Source: Escherichia coli
GTDB lineage: Bacteria; Pseudomonadota; Gammaproteobacteria; Enterobacterales; Enterobacteriaceae
Length of the DNA: 64,000 bases
Reading direction: 5' to 3' (one strand)
Assembly (NCBI RefSeq): GCF_016026235.1
Contig: NZ_CP065613.1
The number at the start of each line of letters is the position of its first letter. Position 1 is the first letter of the stretch. The translations under genes were made by a program, and so were the position numbers. The notes below the pieces were generated by a model. It made no database searches, had not been told where the DNA came from, and worked only from the letters and a program-made list of their open reading frames with translations. Below are positions 2,631 to 64,000 of this stretch, in pieces.

Positions 2631-4067
2631 TTACACCCGTCCGTAGCGATCCGCGAAGCGCACCACATCATCCTCTTCGAGATAAGAGCCGGAGCGCACT
2701 TCAATTAAATCGAGCGGAATTTTCCCCGGGTTTTCCAGGCAGTGCGTCGCCCCCAGCGGAATATAAATCGACTCGTTTTCACCAAGCAGTTTGATATCAC
2801 CATCGATAGTGACTTTTGCCGTTCCCGCGACCACCACCCAGTGTTCCGCGCGGTGATGGTGCATCTGTACCGACAAGCCTTCGCCCGGTTTCACGGTGAT
2901 GCGTTTCACCTGGTAGCGGTCGCCCGCGTCGATAGAGTCATATTTGCCCCACGGACGATACACTTCGCGATGCACCCGATGCTCATGGCGACCATCGGCT
3001 TTGATCTGCTCGACCACTTTTTTCACATCCTGCACCGCGTTACGGTCGGCAATCAGCACCGCATCTTTGGTCTGCACTACCACCAAATCTTTCACCCCGA
3101 CGGTGGTGACCAGGCCAGATTCGGCATACACATAGCTGTTTTCGGTTTTGTGATTAATCACATCGCCGTGGCAAACGTTGCCCTCGGCGGTGTGGGCGCT
3201 GATTTCCCATAAAGAGGACCAGGAGCCAACATCGCTCCAGCCCGCATCCATCGGCACCACAACAGCATCTGCCGTACGTTCCATGACCGCGTAATCCACC
3301 GACTCTTCCGGGCAGGCCAGAAACGCTTCTTCATCCACGCGAATAAAATCGAGATCCGGATCGACGGCGCTCATCGCTTGTTCACAGGCGTCGAGAATAT
3401 CCGGGCGATATTTTTTCAGTTCTTCGAGATAGCGTCCGGCGCGGAACAGGAACATGCCGCTGTTCCAGTAATATTCGCCGCTTGCCACATAGGCCTGGGC
3501 GGTTTCCAGATTCGGTTTTTCGACAAACTGCGCCACTTCAAAGGCCACCGTATCCTGCTCACCCGCCGACACTTCACCGCGACGAATATAGCCATATCCG
3601 GTTTCAGGTAGATCCGGCACAATGCCGAAGATCACCAGCTTGCCCGCTTCGGCATACGGCATGGCATTACGCACGGCGGCACGGAACGCGTCTTCATCGG
3701 CAATCACATGATCCGCCGCCAGCACCAGCATTAACGGGTCGCTCTCCGGGCTATGACGTTTTGCCGCCAGCGCCGCCAGTGCAATGGCAGGTGCAGTGTT
3801 ACGCCCTGCCGGTTCGAGAATAATGTTCTCGGTGAGTTTGTTCAGTTGACGCAGCTGTTCCGCGACAATAAAGCGGTGCTGCTCATTGCAAATCACCACT
3901 GGGCTTTCGCACTCCACGCCGTTCAGGCGGCAGATGGTGGTTTGCAGCATGGTGAGATCGCCTTTCAGGCATAAAAACTGCTTGGGGTAAAGTACGCGGG
4001 AAAGCGGCCATAAGCGGCTACCGGAGCCACCTGCCATCACAACTGGATAGAGTTTCGACTGCGCCAT
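2631..4067 (-). CDS. cpsB: Mannose-1-phosphate guanylyltransferase
   Basis: 478 aa; N-terminal nucleotidyltransferase motif [16 protein letters not shown] and C-terminal cupin-like region. Confidence 0.92.
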
Positions 4068-4069
4068 AA

Positions 4070-5293
4070 TTATCCCCGAATATCATTTATAAATTGACGT
4101 AACACGTTCTCTTTATCGAGTGTGCGTTCGGCATATTCACGTGCCACCGTGTTGTGTTTGGGCAGCAGGAGCGCCTGACGGATCCCCGCCACCAGCGCCT
4201 CGACCGATTCCGGTTCTACGCAAACCGCAATGCCCGGAAAGGTTTCGCAAAGCTGCCCCAGTTCTGTGTGGGCCTCTGCGGTAATCACCGCGTTACCGCC
4301 TACCGCCAGAATATTGGTCAGTTTCGACGGCAATACGGCATCTGCCGCACCGCGTTTTTGCACCACCAGATGGCAATCGCCCATCTTCAGCAGTGCGGGT
4401 AAAGCGTCATACGATTGCAGCGGGAAAAATTGCATGTTGCGCAGTCCACGCTGCTGCGCCATTTTTTCCAGCCGCGCTTTGCCGCCGCCCTGCCCGACAA
4501 TGGCAAAAATCAGCGGTTCATCGCGCAGACGATCGGCAGCTTCAATAACGTTTTCCAGCCCCTGCTTTTCACCAATATTGCCGGAGTAAAGAATGATTTT
4601 TTTGTTATCCGGCAGGTCAAGCTGGTTACGAAGGGCGTCAACATCGGCATCTGCAACATGCTGAAAACGGGCAATTTCCGACCAGTTGGGGAAGAAGATG
4701 ACGTTTTCCGCCGCCACGCCTTTTTCGATGGCTTTATTCATCATCGAACGCGAAATCGTGGAGACGTTATCGACGTTATGCAGTCCGCTACGTTCGAACG
4801 CCGTTGCCAGCTGTGCCACTTTGCCGCCTTTGCCTTTTCCGGCAAGGCCCAGCCCCAGCATGGCGTCCACTTCGTAATCCTGAATATGCAGCACGGTACG
4901 CGCACCAGAGAGCTTCGCCAGCAGGCGCATTCCCGGCGTGCAAAACAGCGTTGGCACTACGCCGATAATGCGATCCGGCTTCCAGCGACGTTGCGCCATC
5001 AGTGGAAAGAAACTGCTGACGGCAAAACTGCCGAGATGCAACAAGCGTTTCAGGGTGCTCGGCTGTTTTGGCACGTACAGCGGGCAGCGCCACACCGTGG
5101 CGGCCCCCTCTTCTCGTTTGTAGCGCCAGGCGGAATAGTTCTCACCCACCTGCCATTGCGGGTAGTAAGGCGGTGCGGTAATGACCCGCACCTCATGACC
5201 TTGTGCCGCCAGCCATTCCACCATCTCGCCGGTGTATTTGCCGATGCCGGTTAACTCCGGCGAGTAGTTAATGCCGTAGACCAGTATTTTCAT
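4070..5293 (-). CDS. wcaI: Colanic acid glycosyltransferase (GT1/GT4 type)
   Basis: 407 aa; glycosyltransferase-like; 4-nt overlap with gmm; position in wca operon. Confidence 0.85.
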
Positions 5294-5772
5294 AATCCGG
5301 GTACTCCGGCACGCTTCTCAGCGAGAAAATAGGCGCGGCTGTTAGCGTGAACATCGTTACTGGCGAGCAGCGCGTCCGGCGTCAGCCAGCGGTAATCGTC
5401 ATGCTGCTCATCCGGCAGTAACAGCTCTTCTTCCGCTACTCTGAAGCGAAAACCGAGCACCACATAGTGAGTGGTGAAATCCGTGCCGGAGAAGTTATCG
5501 TCATAAAAGTGCTGCCAGACACCGTAAAACTGGCCTGCTGTTATCGGCAGACGCAGCCCCAGTTCCGCCATCGTCAGCCGCTCAAATGCGGCTTCCAGCG
5601 TTTCGTCTTTCTGCACGCGCCCTCCCGGCACAAACCAGTAACCCTGCGCCGGGCGGTTGGTTCTTTTGCCAAGCAGAAACTCGCCGCGACTGTTCTCGAC
5701 AATAAAGTCGAGAGAGACAAGCGGTGTGGAGCGCACTACCGTGGCAAAGTCTTCCTGACGTAAAAACATCAT
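5290..5772 (-). CDS. gmm: GDP-mannose mannosyl hydrolase (Nudix)
   Basis: 160 aa; Nudix-like box [23 protein letters not shown]. Confidence 0.88.
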
Positions 5773-59248: not shown

Positions 59249-60301
59249 TCAGGCAATAGTAATTTTGCTATCGAGATAAACGTCCTGCACGGCGTTAATC
59301 AGTTTCACGCCGTCAGCCATCGATTTCTTGAACGCCTTACGTCCAAGAATCAGCCCCATTCCGCCAGCGCGTTTGTTGATAACCGCAGTACGCACTGCAT
59401 CACTGAGGTCAGTTTCACCGCCTGCAGCACCGCCGGAGTTTATCAACCCAGCCCGGCCCATATAGCAGTTAGCTAACTGATAACGCACCAGATCAATCGG
59501 GTTTTCGCTGGTTAACTTGCTGTACACGCGATCGTCGGTATAACCGTAATTAATCGCTTTATAGCCGCCGTTATTTTCCGCCATTTTTTGTTTGACGATA
59601 TCTGCGCCGATGGTTGCCGCCAGATGGTTTGCCTGACCGGTCAGGTCGGCGGAAACATGGTAATCAACGCCATCTTTCTTAAAGGCGGAGTTACGCAAAT
59701 AGGCCCACAGCACGGTCACCATGCCCAGCTCATGCGCACGTTCAAAAGCCGCAGAAATTTCTTCAATCTGGCGACGTGACTCTTCCGAGCCAAAATAGAT
59801 AGTCGCACCAACCGCCACCGCGCCCATGTTGAAAGCCTGCTCCACGCTGGCATACAGCGTTTGATCGTAGGTATTCGGGTAACTTAGCGTCTCGTTGTGA
59901 TTAAGTTTGACGAGAAATGGAATGCGATGCGCATAGCGCCGCGATACCGACGCCAACACGCCGTAAGTTGATGCCACACAGTTACAGCCCGCTTCGATCG
60001 CCAGTTCAACAATGTTTTTCGGGTCAAAGTAGAGCGGGTTAGCAGCAAATGAAGCTCCGGCAGAGTGCTCAACGCCCTGGTCAACCGGCAGAATAGAAAG
60101 ATATCCTGTGCCAGCCAGACGCCCGGTGTTGTACAACGTCTGCATATTACGTAACACCGCTGGCGGGCGATTATTGTCAATCATTACGCGGTCTACGTAG
60201 TCATGTCCGGGGAGATAAAGCTGGTCAGAAGGAATTGTCATACAACGGTGCTGTAAAAGGTTGTCGGCGTCTTTGCCAAGCAACTGCGCAATATCTGTCA
60301 T
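59249..60301 (-). CDS. fbaB: Fructose-bisphosphate aldolase class I
   Basis: ORF track 59249..60373; start trimmed to [16 protein letters not shown]. Confidence 0.9.
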
Positions 60302-60557
60302 TACTATGCTCCCGTAAATTCCGATTGGATATCGGCTATGGATTGTCCTGGCCCGCCTTTTGCGGGCAATCATAATCCTGGTCGTTACGGGCGAGTTTTT
60401 CCATCTTTTGGATGTTTTTTCAGCGTTTTCTGTTGGCTCGATTCATCAGAAAAAATGTTAGCGCGGTCAAGTTTTCACCGTAAAGGCATTTAAAAGGTAT
60501 TATTAAGTGGTATTGTCATCGCGTACCTTACATTACCTGTCATGAAGGAATTAAAAG

Positions 60558-61835
60558 ATGAAAACAACAGCAAAGCTGTCGTTCATGATGTTTGTTGAAT
60601 GGTTTATCTGGGGCGCGTGGTTTGTGCCATTGTGGTTGTGGTTAAGTAAAAGCGGTTTTAGTGCCGGAGAAATTGGCTGGTCGTATGCCTGTACCGCCAT
60701 TGCGGCGATCCTGTCGCCAATTCTGGTTGGCTCCATCACTGACCGCTTTTTCTCGGCGCAAAAAGTGCTGGCGGTATTGATGTTCGCAGGCGCGCTGCTG
60801 ATGTATTTCGCTGCGCAACAGACCACTTTTGCCGGGTTCTTTCCGTTACTGCTGGCTTACTCTCTAACCTATATGCCGACCATTGCGCTGACTAACAGCA
60901 TCGCTTTTGCCAACGTGCCGGATGTGGAGCGTGATTTCCCGCGCATTCGTGTGATGGGCACTATCGGCTGGATTGCCTCCGGTCTGGCATGTGGTTTCTT
61001 GCCGCAAATACTGGGGTATGCCGATATCTCACCGACTAACATCCCGCTGCTGATTACCGCCGGAAGTTCTGCTCTGCTCGGTGTGTTTGCGTTTTTCCTG
61101 CCCGACACGCCACCAAAAAGCACCGGCAAAATGGATATTAAAGTCATGCTCGGCCTGGATGCGCTGATCCTGCTGCGCGATAAAAACTTCCTCGTCTTTT
61201 TCTTCTGTTCATTCCTGTTTGCGATGCCACTGGCGTTCTATTACATCTTTGCCAACGGTTATCTGACCGAAGTCGGCATGAAAAATGCCACCGGCTGGAT
61301 GACGCTCGGCCAGTTCTCTGAAATATTCTTTATGCTGGCATTACCGTTTTTCACTAAACGCTTTGGTATCAAAAAGGTATTATTTCTTGGTCTGGTCACC
61401 GCTGCGATCCGCTATGGCTTCTTTATTTACGGTAGTGCGGATGAATATTTCACCTACGCGTTACTGTTCCTCGGTATTTTGCTTCACGGCGTAAGTTACG
61501 ATTTTTACTACGTTACCGCTTACATCTATGTCGATAAAAAAGCCCCCGTGCATATGCGTACCGCCGCGCAGGGGCTGATCACGCTCTGCTGCCAGGGCTT
61601 CGGCAGTTTGCTCGGCTATCGTCTTGGCGGTGTGATGATGGAAAAGATGTTCGCTTATCAGGAACCGGTAAACGGACTGACTTTCAACTGGTCCGGGATG
61701 TGGACTTTTGGCGCGGTGATGATTGCCATTATCGCCGTGCTGTTCATGATTTTTTTCCGCGAATCCGACAACGAAATTACGGCTATCAAGGTCGATGATC
61801 GCGATATTGCGTTGACACAAGGGGAAGTTAAATGA
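60558..61835 (+). CDS. yegT: MFS nucleoside transporter family protein
   Basis: 425 aa; 12-TM MFS. Confidence 0.88.
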   Translation: MKTTAKLSFMMFVEWFIWGAWFVPLWLWLSKSGFSAGEIGWSYACTAIAAILSPILVGSITDRFFSAQKVLAVLMFAGALLMYFAAQQTTFAGFFPLLLAYSLTYMPTIALTNSIAFANVPDVERDFPRIRVMGTIGWIASGLACGFLPQILGYADISPTNIPLLITAGSSALLGVFAFFLPDTPPKSTGKMDIKVMLGLDALILLRDKNFLVFFFCSFLFAMPLAFYYIFANGYLTEVGMKNATGWMTLGQFSEIFFMLALPFFTKRFGIKKVLFLGLVTAAIRYGFFIYGSADEYFTYALLFLGILLHGVSYDFYYVTAYIYVDKKAPVHMRTAAQGLITLCCQGFGSLLGYRLGGVMMEKMFAYQEPVNGLTFNWSGMWTFGAVMIAIIAVLFMIFFRESDNEITAIKVDDRDIALTQGEVK

Positions 61836-62836
61836 AAACAGAACGTATTCTCGGTGCTCTTTATGGGCAGGCGTTAGGGGATGCGATGGGGATGCCCTCC
61901 GAGCTTTGGCCACGCAGCCGCGTTAAAGCACACTTTGGCTGGATTGACCGTTTTCTGCCTGGACCAAAGGAGAATAACGCGGCCTGTTATTTTAACCGCG
62001 CCGAATTCACCGACGATACCTCGATGGCGCTGTGTCTGGCGGATGCGTTGCTGGAACGTAAAGGCAAGATCGATCCGGATCTGATTGGGCGTAATATCCT
62101 CGACTGGGCGCTGCGTTTCGACGCCTTCAACAAAAACGTGCTAGGTCCGACCTCGAAGATTGCGCTTAACGCCATTCGCGACGGTAAACCCGTTGCTGAA
62201 CTGGAAAACAACGGCGTAACCAACGGCGCAGCGATGCGCGTCTCGCCATTAGGTTGTTTGCTTCCGGCGCGCGATGTTGATTCCTTTATTGATGATGTGG
62301 CGCTGGCGTCGAGCCCGACCCATAAATCCGATCTGGCAGTTGCAGGTGCGGTAGTCATCGTATGGGCGATTTCTCGTGCTATTGACGGAGAAAGCTGGTC
62401 AGCGATTGTTGATTCACTGCCTTCAATTGCGCGACATGCCCAGCAAAAACGCACCACCACGTTCAGCGCCTCACTGGCGGCGCGGCTGGAGATTGCGCTG
62501 AAAATTGTGCGCAATGCCGACGGCACCGAATCCGCCAGCGAACAGCTTTACCAGGTCGTTGGCGCAGGTACCAGCACTATTGAGTCCGTTCCGTGCGCCA
62601 TTGCGCTGGTTGAACTGGCACAAACCGACCCGAACCGTTGCGCCGTCCTCTGCGCTAACCTTGGCGGCGATACAGACACCATCGGTGCTATGGCGACGGC
62701 AATCTGCGGCGCGTTGCATGGCATTAACGCTATCGATCCTGCGTTAAAGGCGGAGCTGGATGCGGTAAATCAGCTTGATTTCAACCGCTATGCCACAGCG
62801 CTGGCGAAATATCGTCAACAACGGGAGGCGGTATGA
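61832..62836 (+). CDS. yegU: ADP-ribosylglycohydrolase-family protein
   Basis: 334 aa; N-terminal GQALGDAMGMPSE typical of the ADP-ribosylglycohydrolase fold. Confidence 0.85.
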   Translation: MKTERILGALYGQALGDAMGMPSELWPRSRVKAHFGWIDRFLPGPKENNAACYFNRAEFTDDTSMALCLADALLERKGKIDPDLIGRNILDWALRFDAFNKNVLGPTSKIALNAIRDGKPVAELENNGVTNGAAMRVSPLGCLLPARDVDSFIDDVALASSPTHKSDLAVAGAVVIVWAISRAIDGESWSAIVDSLPSIARHAQQKRTTTFSASLAARLEIALKIVRNADGTESASEQLYQVVGAGTSTIESVPCAIALVELAQTDPNRCAVLCANLGGDTDTIGAMATAICGALHGINAIDPALKAELDAVNQLDFNRYATALAKYRQQREAV

Positions 62837-63798
62837 GCGGCGCTCGATTACACACGCTGCTGCCTGAATTAACCACGCGTCAGTCGGTGATGGTCGTCGG
62901 CGCGGCGGTCATTGACGTGATCGCCGACGCTTATGCCCTCCCCTGGCGTGGGTGCGATATCGAACTGAAACAGCAGAGCGTTAACGTTGGCGGCTGCGCA
63001 CTGAATATTGCCGTGGCGTTAAAGCGCCTCGGCATCGAAGCGGGTAATGCCTTGCCGCTCGGTCAGGGGGTATGGGCGGAGATTATTCGCAACCGGATGG
63101 CGAAAGAGGGGTTAATCAGCCTGATCGATAACGCCGAAGGCGATAACGGCTGGTGTCTGGCGCTGGTTGAGCCGGATGGCGAACGTACTTTTATGTCATT
63201 CAGCGGTGTGGAAAATCAGTGGAATCGCCAGTGGCTGGCGCGATTAACCGTTGCGCCTGGCAACCTGCTCTATTTTTCCGGTTATCAACTGGCCTCGCCC
63301 TGCGGCGAATTGTTAGTGGAATGGCTGGAAGAGCTGCAAGACGTGACGCCGTTTATCGATTTTGGCCCACGTATTGGCGATATCCCGGACGCATTACTGG
63401 CGCGGATCATGGCCTGTCGACCTTTAGTGTCACTCAATCGTCAAGAGGCTGAGATTGCCGCCGAACGTTTTGCTTTATCCGCAGAGATAACAACACTTGG
63501 CAAGCAATGGCAGGAGAAATTTGCCGCGCCGTTGATCGTTCGTCTCGATAAAGAAGGCGCATGGTATTTCAGCAACGACGCTTCTGGCTGCATTCCGGCA
63601 TTTCCAACGCAAGTTGTCGACACCATTGGGGCGGGCGACAGTCATGCCGGTGGCGTACTTGCCGGGCTGGCCTCTGGTCTGCCACTGGCGGATGCCGTAT
63701 TACTGGGCAATGCAGTGGCGTCGTGGGTTGTCGGGCATCGGGGCGGTGATTGTGCGCCAACGCGCGAGGAACTACTCCTCGCACACAAAAACGTATAG
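62833..63798 (+). CDS. yegV: PfkB-family sugar/nucleoside kinase
   Basis: 321 aa; C-terminal PfkB motif DTIGAGDSHAGG. Confidence 0.85.
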   Translation: MSGARLHTLLPELTTRQSVMVVGAAVIDVIADAYALPWRGCDIELKQQSVNVGGCALNIAVALKRLGIEAGNALPLGQGVWAEIIRNRMAKEGLISLIDNAEGDNGWCLALVEPDGERTFMSFSGVENQWNRQWLARLTVAPGNLLYFSGYQLASPCGELLVEWLEELQDVTPFIDFGPRIGDIPDALLARIMACRPLVSLNRQEAEIAAERFALSAEITTLGKQWQEKFAAPLIVRLDKEGAWYFSNDASGCIPAFPTQVVDTIGAGDSHAGGVLAGLASGLPLADAVLLGNAVASWVVGHRGGDCAPTREELLLAHKNV

Positions 63799-64000
63799 AT
63801 CGCTGCGACAGTGGCTAATGCTGTACTCAATAGGCCGTTGCTGTTGGTCAAGCGCCACTTGCTTGATCACCAGCACCGGTATTTTGCTATCTAACTGAAT
63901 ATGTGACTGAAACTCGGCATCCGGCATCCGGGCGCTAACGCGGGAACGCGTACGTTGTGGGTAAATGTGCTGGCTGCGGAAATAGTCATAAAGTGAAATC
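63772..64000 (-). CDS. yegW: GntR/HutC-family transcriptional regulator, C-terminal part (N-terminus beyond window end)
   Basis: Minus-strand frame ends ...YSISHCRSDLYVFVCEE with stop at 63772-63774; overlaps the yegV 3' end by 27 nt. Not in the ORF track because the start is outside the window. Confidence 0.65.
   Translation of the reverse strand, partial: ISLYDYFRSQHIYPQRTRSRVSARMPDAEFQSHIQLDSKIPVLVIKQVALDQQQRPIEYSISHCRSDLYVFVCEE

Follow-up and report, generated by a model that had tools for sequence, protein, structure and literature searches.

In a window of 64,000 nucleotides of Escherichia coli DNA, the sugar kinase gene yegV and the oppositely oriented repressor gene yegW (ggaR) share the last 27 nt of their coding sequences (63772–63798), and each stop codon is read as part of a leucine codon of the partner gene. 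Our analysis indicates that this old and genuine coding overlap is most likely kept frozen by the constraint of encoding two proteins at once, with the complementarity between the two RNAs being incidental.

The segment 62800–64000 of the window was matched in 5423 of 5426 complete E. coli genomes (best match 99.9%), in which yegU, yegV and yegW are the annotated features. In the closest genome (99.9%; locus L001), fbaB and then yegT-yegU-yegV are arranged on one strand and yegW-yegX-thiD-thiM on the other; the layout is the same in K-12 MG1655, where yegW is named GgaR. On the plus strand of the window, yegT (60558–61835; nucleoside:H+ symporter family) and yegU (61832–62836; ADP-ribosylglycohydrolase family) form the upstream part of the yegTUV operon, which ends with yegV (62833–63798 according to the ORF list and annotation; 321 aa, PfkB-family sugar kinase). 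Both yegT/yegU and yegU/yegV overlap by 4 nt (ATGA). The minus strand carries the 3' part of yegW (63772–64000), which encodes a repressor of the GntR/HutC family that has a UTRA effector domain. The window includes no more than the final 229 nt of this gene, corresponding to codons 173–248 and the stop, as the gene runs past the window end; in the extended locus L001 the full yegW encodes 248 aa.

Each gene contributes eight sense codons and its stop to the shared segment. On the plus strand, the segment reads CTA CTC CTC GCA CAC AAA AAC GTA TAG, which encodes L314–V321 of YegV (LLLAHKNV) and the stop; the minus-strand sequence, CTA TAC GTT TTT GTG TGC GAG GAG TAG, encodes L241–E248 of YegW (LYVFVCEE) and the stop. 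According to the ORF list and translation, YegV terminates with ...REELLLAHKNV and a TAG at 63796–63798, the complement of the YegW Leu241 codon CTA. Vice versa, the minus-strand frame translated from position 63999 ends with ...CRSDLYVFVCEE, giving YegW the C-terminal end ...SDLYVFVCEE, and its TAG stop at 63772–63774 (CTA on the plus strand) is the complement of the YegV Leu314 codon CTA. The two frames are in exact antisense register, codon position 1 being opposite position 3 of the partner, and in this register a single YTA (Leu) or TCA (Ser) codon in one gene suffices to place a stop in the other. The RefSeq annotation gives the same tail-to-tail pair, with each ORF including its own stop, both in L001 (yegV 4034–4999, yegW 4973–5719; shared 4973–4999) and in K-12 MG1655 (yegV 2181096–2182061, yegW/GgaR 2182035–2182781; shared 2182035–2182061). 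The convergent 27-nt overlap proposed by a sequence-only reading of this DNA is thus confirmed by the ORF list, the translation and the annotation of both genomes, and the accompanying statement that the yegV stop falls within the last nine codons of yegW is right when the stop is counted along with the eight sense codons.

As a background, we used seven annotated stretches of the K-12 genome of 50 kb each (350 kb), which contain 58 adjacent convergent CDS pairs. Six of these 58 pairs overlap, every one by exactly 4 nt, and none has a longer overlap. A convergent overlap of 27 nt is therefore uncommon, accounting for roughly less than 5% of convergent pairs.

Both ORFs are real genes: the products match PfkB (8e-57) and GntR plus UTRA (2e-36) in Pfam, have relatives of solved structure and are conserved in about 80 species. 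A scan with YegW as the query and one genome per species yielded 80 loci, and at 78 of them the junction comprised both genes. In 75 of these 78 loci across the Enterobacterales, the two genes share the same 27 nt, and the two stop codons sit in identical places; the genera and species represented include Escherichia, Citrobacter, Salmonella diarizonae, Klebsiella/Raoultella, Enterobacter, Kluyvera, Pectobacterium, Cedecea and Leminorella (Budviciaceae), with the consensus YTA CTC CTC GCA CAC AAA RAC GTA TAR. Within this group, protein identity drops to 62% for YegV and 78% for YegW. Among the E. coli genomes, an 81-nt junction probe was matched in 5400 of 5426. The fixed placement of the two stops in 75 of the 78 species loci means that the overlap is no accident of ORF calling.

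Codon-by-codon counts over the 75 species loci with the 27-nt junction show how the two genes accommodate each other. The codon for YegW Leu241 is CTA in 53 and TTA in 22 loci, its third base A being invariant, and these two codons make up 12% of the remaining yegW leucine codons. As its stop codon, yegW uses TAA in 44 and TAG in 31 loci, and because of this YegV Leu314 is always encoded by YTA, while CTA and TTA together account for 10% of the remaining yegV leucine codons. Only the change from CTA to TTA is without consequence for both products, as it exchanges one leucine codon for another in one gene and one stop for another in the partner; it has occurred repeatedly. Most of the other variation in the overlap sits at wobble positions of yegW, where it is silent in YegW and alters YegV; the YegV tail correspondingly varies between Ala and Thr, between His, Asp, Asn and Tyr, between Lys and Glu, and between Asn, Asp and His. 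An exception are the wobble bases of yegW Glu247 and Glu248, which face the first positions of YegV leucine codons and are almost fixed. Beyond these two bases, we found no extra constraint on synonymous sites in the overlap among the 75 loci: the entropy at yegW wobble positions (0.18–1.47) is similar to that of the codons preceding the overlap, and hence there is no pointer to a constraint other than that of two proteins and two stops. Loss of the respective stop codon would extend YegV by 31 and YegW by 23 residues.

The two protein ends that meet in the overlap are of different nature. In Pfam, the PfkB domain (PF00294) covers YegV residues 17–309, and alignments of YegV with ribokinases stop at about residue 313–316. 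In YegW, the GntR domain covers residues 29–87 and the UTRA domain residues 108–242, residues 229–248 are nearly invariant among the 75 loci, and the protein could be aligned with the sequence of the NagR/YvoA structure through residue 245 (CRSDLYVFV versus YRGDRYTFV), close to the end of NagR/YvoA. We take this end of YegW, through residue 245, to be the last beta-strand of the UTRA domain as in HutC-family regulators. Together, the Pfam limits and the structure alignments suggest that the overlap combines a structured and constrained end of YegW with a loose tail of YegV. The length of YegV is unchanged by the overlap, as 12 residues follow the GGDCAP motif in E. coli and also in orthologues whose genes are separated by a spacer.

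A number of loci have other junction states. In C. amalonaticus (S646), the last approximately 100 nt of yegW are duplicated (the copies being 87–88% identical), and yegV ends in the decayed yegW copy, 56 nt past the live yegW stop. In C. sedlakii, a 69-nt insertion or spacer sets the genes apart. A 1-nt deletion within the overlap of Yokenella has shifted both tails, and S. arizonae has lost yegTUV and kept yegW. More divergent orthologues, identified by protein search and contig look-up, retain the convergent order of yegW and yegV-yegU-yegT with different junctions: yegW and yegV are separated by 67 nt in Yersinia intermedia (L090), by 32 nt in Providencia (L091) and by 32 nt in a further locus (L093), and overlap by 14 nt in a different phase in Pantoea dispersa. 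Each of the three spacers contains a palindromic hairpin, which is A/U-flanked in Providencia and L093; these hairpins beat shuffled sequences on both strands (z −2.4 to −4.6) and have the predicted shape of a bidirectional terminator. On a contig labelled as Aeromonas, a junction of the 27-nt type lies beside an IS110 transposase, and the Yersinia locus is near an integrase; judging from these flanking elements, the yegTUVW module appears to move horizontally. The presence of a spacer or of a 14-nt overlap in distant loci and the renewed separation of the genes in two Citrobacter lineages show that the overlap itself is dispensable. The adjacency of yegW to its target operon was kept across the loci examined. 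As judged from these comparisons, the convergent arrangement is the widely conserved feature, and the coding overlap is one among several workable junctions.

These findings suggest the following scenario. The overlap probably arose by loss of a short spacer bearing a terminator-like hairpin, of the kind that persists in the more divergent orthologous loci; the direction from spacer to overlap rather than the reverse is inferred from a few loci. After the spacer was lost, the junction would have been frozen because most insertions and deletions would harm both proteins. Within the overlap, as the codon counts show, the near-invariant YegW tail LYVFVCEE, the end of the UTRA domain, dictates the DNA sequence, and the last residues of YegV are largely passengers: the YegV tail changes whenever a yegW wobble base changes, with selection retaining both stops. 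However, the exact junction may also have been maintained across so many species because the arrangement itself was selected for, and the conserved convergent placement of the repressor gene downstream of its target is left unexplained by coding constraint.

The assignment of YegW as a GntR-type regulator of the kinase operon, which had been suggested from the sequence alone, is well supported. In addition to the GntR and UTRA domains and the conserved adjacency, Saito et al. (2024) have shown YegW/GgaR to bind upstream of yegT and to repress yegTUV, its only target in the genome; the regulator responds to ADP-glucose (PMC10819704). In the same study, GgaR was present at about 20–30 molecules per cell, constant over the media and growth phases tested. 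Deletion of ggaR was needed for yegTUV mRNA to be seen, as one species of about 3.3 kb, and this mRNA was undetectable in the wild type (PMC10819704). This Northern blot is uninformative on the native 3' end of yegTUV, as the downstream yegW had been replaced in the strain used; gene overlap, convergence, antisense transcription and terminators are not mentioned in that paper.

The sequence-only reading had further stated that the two transcripts must overlap at their 3' ends. This holds as a logical necessity for full-length mRNAs: each must contain its own stop codon, and there is no space for a terminator between the genes, so that each full-length mRNA carries at least 27 nt that are antisense to the other. 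On neither strand did scans of the window region 60000–64000 and of L001 3900–6800 reveal an intrinsic terminator at the junction or close to it, and the actual transcript overlap is therefore probably longer than 27 nt. Each mRNA would probably end deeper within the partner gene, either by Rho-dependent termination or by RNA polymerase collision. With regard to base composition, the first 100 nt or so of RNA past the yegW stop are rich in C and poor in G (C 0.39–0.41, G 0.21–0.25), which resembles the composition of Rho sites, and the RNA past the yegV stop turns C-rich and G-poor only after about 200 nt; both observations are suggestive only. The Term-seq and Rho tables of Adams et al. (2021) have no entry for yegV/yegW and none at K-12 2181800–2182399 (PMC7815308), and the TRS RNAtag-seq supplements have no entry at the junction either. 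The Term-seq data do contain one minus-strand 3' end that lies antisense within yegU, at K-12 2180176 (window 61913), in M63 glucose (PMC7815308). More generally, Conway et al. (2014) found complementary 3' transcript ends at 276 of 370 (75%) convergent E. coli operons, with a mean length of 286 nt (PMC4161252); a transcript overlap at yegV/yegW is therefore expected and ordinary.

An overlap of transcripts does raise the question of whether they interfere with each other, as the sequence-only reading had proposed. If the overlap were a functional cis-antisense module resembling an excludon, release of GgaR by ADP-glucose would allow RNA polymerase on yegTUV, encountering no terminator, to run antisense over ggaR, and collisions or cleavage of RNA duplexes by RNase III would lower the synthesis of repressor, amounting to positive feedback that sharpens the switch; conversely, read-through from yegW would damp basal expression of yegV. 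Such a module would fit the position of ggaR, which is convergent to and directly downstream of its single target operon in every locus examined, whatever the type of junction. It would also be in line with the deep conservation of the junction and with the lack of both intergenic space and an intrinsic-terminator pattern on either strand in E. coli. The minus-strand 3' end within yegU makes a long antisense RNA over the operon possible, and convergent transcription regulates genes elsewhere (cited in PMC4161252). However, the level of GgaR was constant in all conditions, including the glucose-rich ones in which ADP-glucose is proposed to act (PMC10819704), and both units are expressed at very low levels, at which little effect would be expected from complementary ends. 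Moreover, the yegW synonymous sites in the overlap lack extra constraint, orthologous loci have spacers with a terminator-like hairpin, the genes have become separated in two Citrobacter lineages, and the Term-seq tables show neither 3' ends nor Rho-termination regions at the junction. Mutual antisense interference between the yegV and yegW transcripts is thus weakly disfavoured, and we consider a functional module of this kind unlikely. A more specific version, in which loss of the spacer turned GgaR/yegTUV into an obligate convergent-transcription module, read-through would lower the repressor to give feedback or hysteresis in a glycogen-related response, and the junction would be conserved partly for this reason, appears quite unlikely.

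The junction also contains a perfect palindrome, GCGAGGA-ACTAC-TCCTCGC (63764–63782, both strands), with a 7-bp stem and the yegW stop codon in its loop. This hairpin could be imagined as a functional RNA element shared by both transcripts, that is, a stem-loop stabilizing the 3' ends or an unconventional bidirectional terminator that replaced a lost one. Folding predictions give it a very high stability in the two RNAs (−12.7 and −16.2 kcal/mol; z about −5.3 and −5.5), no shuffled sequence folds equally well, the stop codon is placed in the loop, and a hairpin occupies the corresponding position in the spacer-type orthologous loci. However, the stem is not followed by a U-tract on either strand and was missed by the terminator scan, so that the E. 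coli junction does not qualify as a bidirectional intrinsic terminator. On the yegV strand, the palindrome lies upstream of the stop, and ending transcription there would truncate the message. The helix was also examined by pair counting on 76 aligned junctions (71 distinct sequences), which gave no covariation: 80.9% of the cells are paired compared to 81.2% in shuffles, and 448 of 500 shuffles pair equally well. Mismatches in the middle of the stem are frequent across the aligned junctions, and the left arm is missing in Pectobacterium, Atlantibacter, Cedecea and Leminorella, all of which retain the overlap. The absence of covariation among the 76 aligned sequences rules out the hairpin as a conserved RNA element, and a functional role of the palindrome is very improbable. 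The most plausible reading is that the hairpin merely results from Glu-Glu codons (GAGGA) lying opposite Leu-Leu codons (TCCTC).

Finally, an annotation artefact, in which one of the proteins truly ends earlier owing to a sequencing error or a mis-assigned frame, could appeal to the poor conservation of the YegV tail and its position beyond residue 309, where the Pfam PfkB model ends, but is ruled out for practical purposes by both stops being fixed in independent assemblies of 75 species and, within E. coli, in thousands of genomes, by the lack of an earlier in-frame stop in either frame, by the 12 residues after GGDCAP, equal to the number in spacer-type orthologues, and by the alignment of YegW 241–245 with the UTRA end in the NagR/YvoA structure sequence.

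The coordinates of the two genes are already available in RefSeq, and short tail-to-tail overlaps as well as complementary 3' ends of convergent transcripts are well known as classes. What is new here is descriptive: the reciprocal design with each stop embedded in a leucine codon, how deeply the junction is conserved, how unequally the two proteins are constrained, and which other junction states occur. Biologically, the finding is of modest importance; the locus provides a clean and deeply conserved case of how a convergent coding overlap is built. We propose that yegV/yegW illustrates an overlap frozen by double coding constraint, which one Citrobacter lineage has undone by duplicating the shared segment. 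Should the regulatory interpretation hold after all, the locus would offer a simple natural model of feedback between a repressor and its target via convergent transcription.

The overlap may also have practical consequences. According to the legend of Figure 4 in PMC9504249, the Keio deletions retain the start codon and the last six codons with the stop, i.e., 21 nt. As the overlap comprises 27 nt and 21 nt are kept, the Keio deletion of either gene should, by design, alter the C-terminus of the partner protein. The yegW deletion JW2088, which was used to define the function of GgaR, should remove codon 321 and the stop of yegV, and the yegV deletion used in glycogen screens should remove codon 248 and the stop of yegW, whose tail is nearly invariant. 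With the priming-site sequence of pKD13, each partner would presumably read about 12 extra residues into the cassette. Phenotypes ascribed to yegV or yegW may thus partly stem from an altered partner protein.

Four known systems can be compared to the yegV/yegW junction. In excludons and convergent switches, such as the conjugation switch of Enterococcus faecalis (cited in PMC4161252), transcription of a regulator and of its target is mutually antisense, as it would be here, and can in principle result in mutual exclusion or bistability. In contrast, the known regulation of yegTUV/yegW is exerted by binding of GgaR upstream of yegT (PMC10819704), both units are expressed at very low levels, and just 27 nt of overlap are obligatory. 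Bidirectional intrinsic terminators are resembled by the A/U-flanked spacer hairpins of Providencia (L091) and L093 and by the palindromic spacer hairpin of Yersinia (L090), whereas yegV/yegW of E. coli has neither a spacer nor a hairpin with a U-tract, and its coding palindrome was neither picked up by the terminator scan nor supported by covariation. The convergent operons described by Conway et al. (PMC4161252, where ilvA-ilvY and dnaQ-rnh are cited as classic cases) share with yegV/yegW the tail-to-tail arrangement of the units, the complementary 3' RNA ends, the lack of an efficient terminator in between and the conservation of the junction sequence among E. coli genomes. Most of them, however, overlap in their untranslated ends across an intergenic terminator, whereas the 27-nt overlap of the yegV and yegW coding sequences renders the complementarity obligatory. 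Short tail-to-tail gene pairs of prokaryotes likewise consist of two real genes whose stops are embedded in the partner coding sequence, a state that persists as changes hit both genes. The overlapping pairs in the K-12 sample share only 4 nt, compared to 27 nt for yegV/yegW, in which codon position 1 lies opposite position 3 throughout.

In C. amalonaticus S646, a natural case is found in which the 27-nt overlap of yegW and yegV has been resolved through duplication. Here, the last ~100 nt of yegW are directly duplicated (L023:5652-5856; coordinates of loci from other genomes are locus-internal), the two copies being 87-88% identical, and this duplication of the yegW 3' end created a gap of 56 nt between the genes. 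yegV now ends within the decayed yegW copy, and its tail is altered and longer. The two genes are also separated in Citrobacter sedlakii, where a 69-nt spacer (L016:5748-5816) holds short palindromes such as TGCAGAC-CGGTC-GTCTGCA and the YegV tail differs (…REQLLVSLKR). In Pantoea dispersa (L092:4728-4741), the phase of the yegW-yegV overlap is different and its length is 14 nt; the 246-aa YegW has the C-terminus …MYVFIAE.

A 1-nt deletion in the shared segment of Yokenella regensburgei (L064:5730-5975) shifts the frame of both tails, and the yegW frame then continues for ~76 further codons; either a genuine mutation or a mistake in the draft assembly could account for it. Salmonella enterica subsp. 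arizonae (L027) has an intact yegW, while downstream of position 5747 all that is left of yegV is a remnant with an internal deletion, joined to a yegT-like fragment. Thus, the target operon has decayed and the repressor gene persists. In Pragia fontium (L094), yegW is present without an adjoining yegV.

Within E. coli, an 81-nt probe across the junction was absent from 26 of 5426 genomes, and one copy of the yegV-yegW region was located on a plasmid. In strain LB858871 (match H30), only 56% of the yegV-yegW probe was matched and the kinase gene carries a generic annotation only, which together suggests a disrupted yegV. Enterobacteriaceae-type loci with the 27-nt overlap also occurred on contigs labelled as unrelated genera, Aeromonas jandaei (L095) and Chryseobacterium sp. 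18061 (L035), the former with an IS110-family transposase adjoining yegW. Their placement is due to horizontal transfer, contamination or mislabelling.

The genes of yegTUV additionally overlap on the same strand, yegT with yegU (window 61832-61835) and yegU with yegV (window 62833-62836), each by 4 nt (ATGA). This is the usual arrangement, which is associated with translational coupling inside an operon.

Published Term-seq data (Adams et al. 2021, PMC7815308; supplementary file 1, in what appears to be the M63-glucose sheet) place an RNA 3' end on the minus strand, antisense within the 5' part of yegU (window 61908-61949, end at ~61913, equal to K-12 2180176). Counted from the yegW stop, this end is ~1.86 kb downstream, and it could stem from yegW read-through or from an independent antisense RNA.

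Where E. coli has the overlap, the loci of Yersinia intermedia (L090:4748-4814), Providencia (L091:4748-4779) and L093 (L093:4748-4779) have a yegW-yegV spacer with a palindromic hairpin. All three hairpins fold well on both strands, and those of Providencia and L093 bear A/U flanks. The element looks like a bidirectional terminator.
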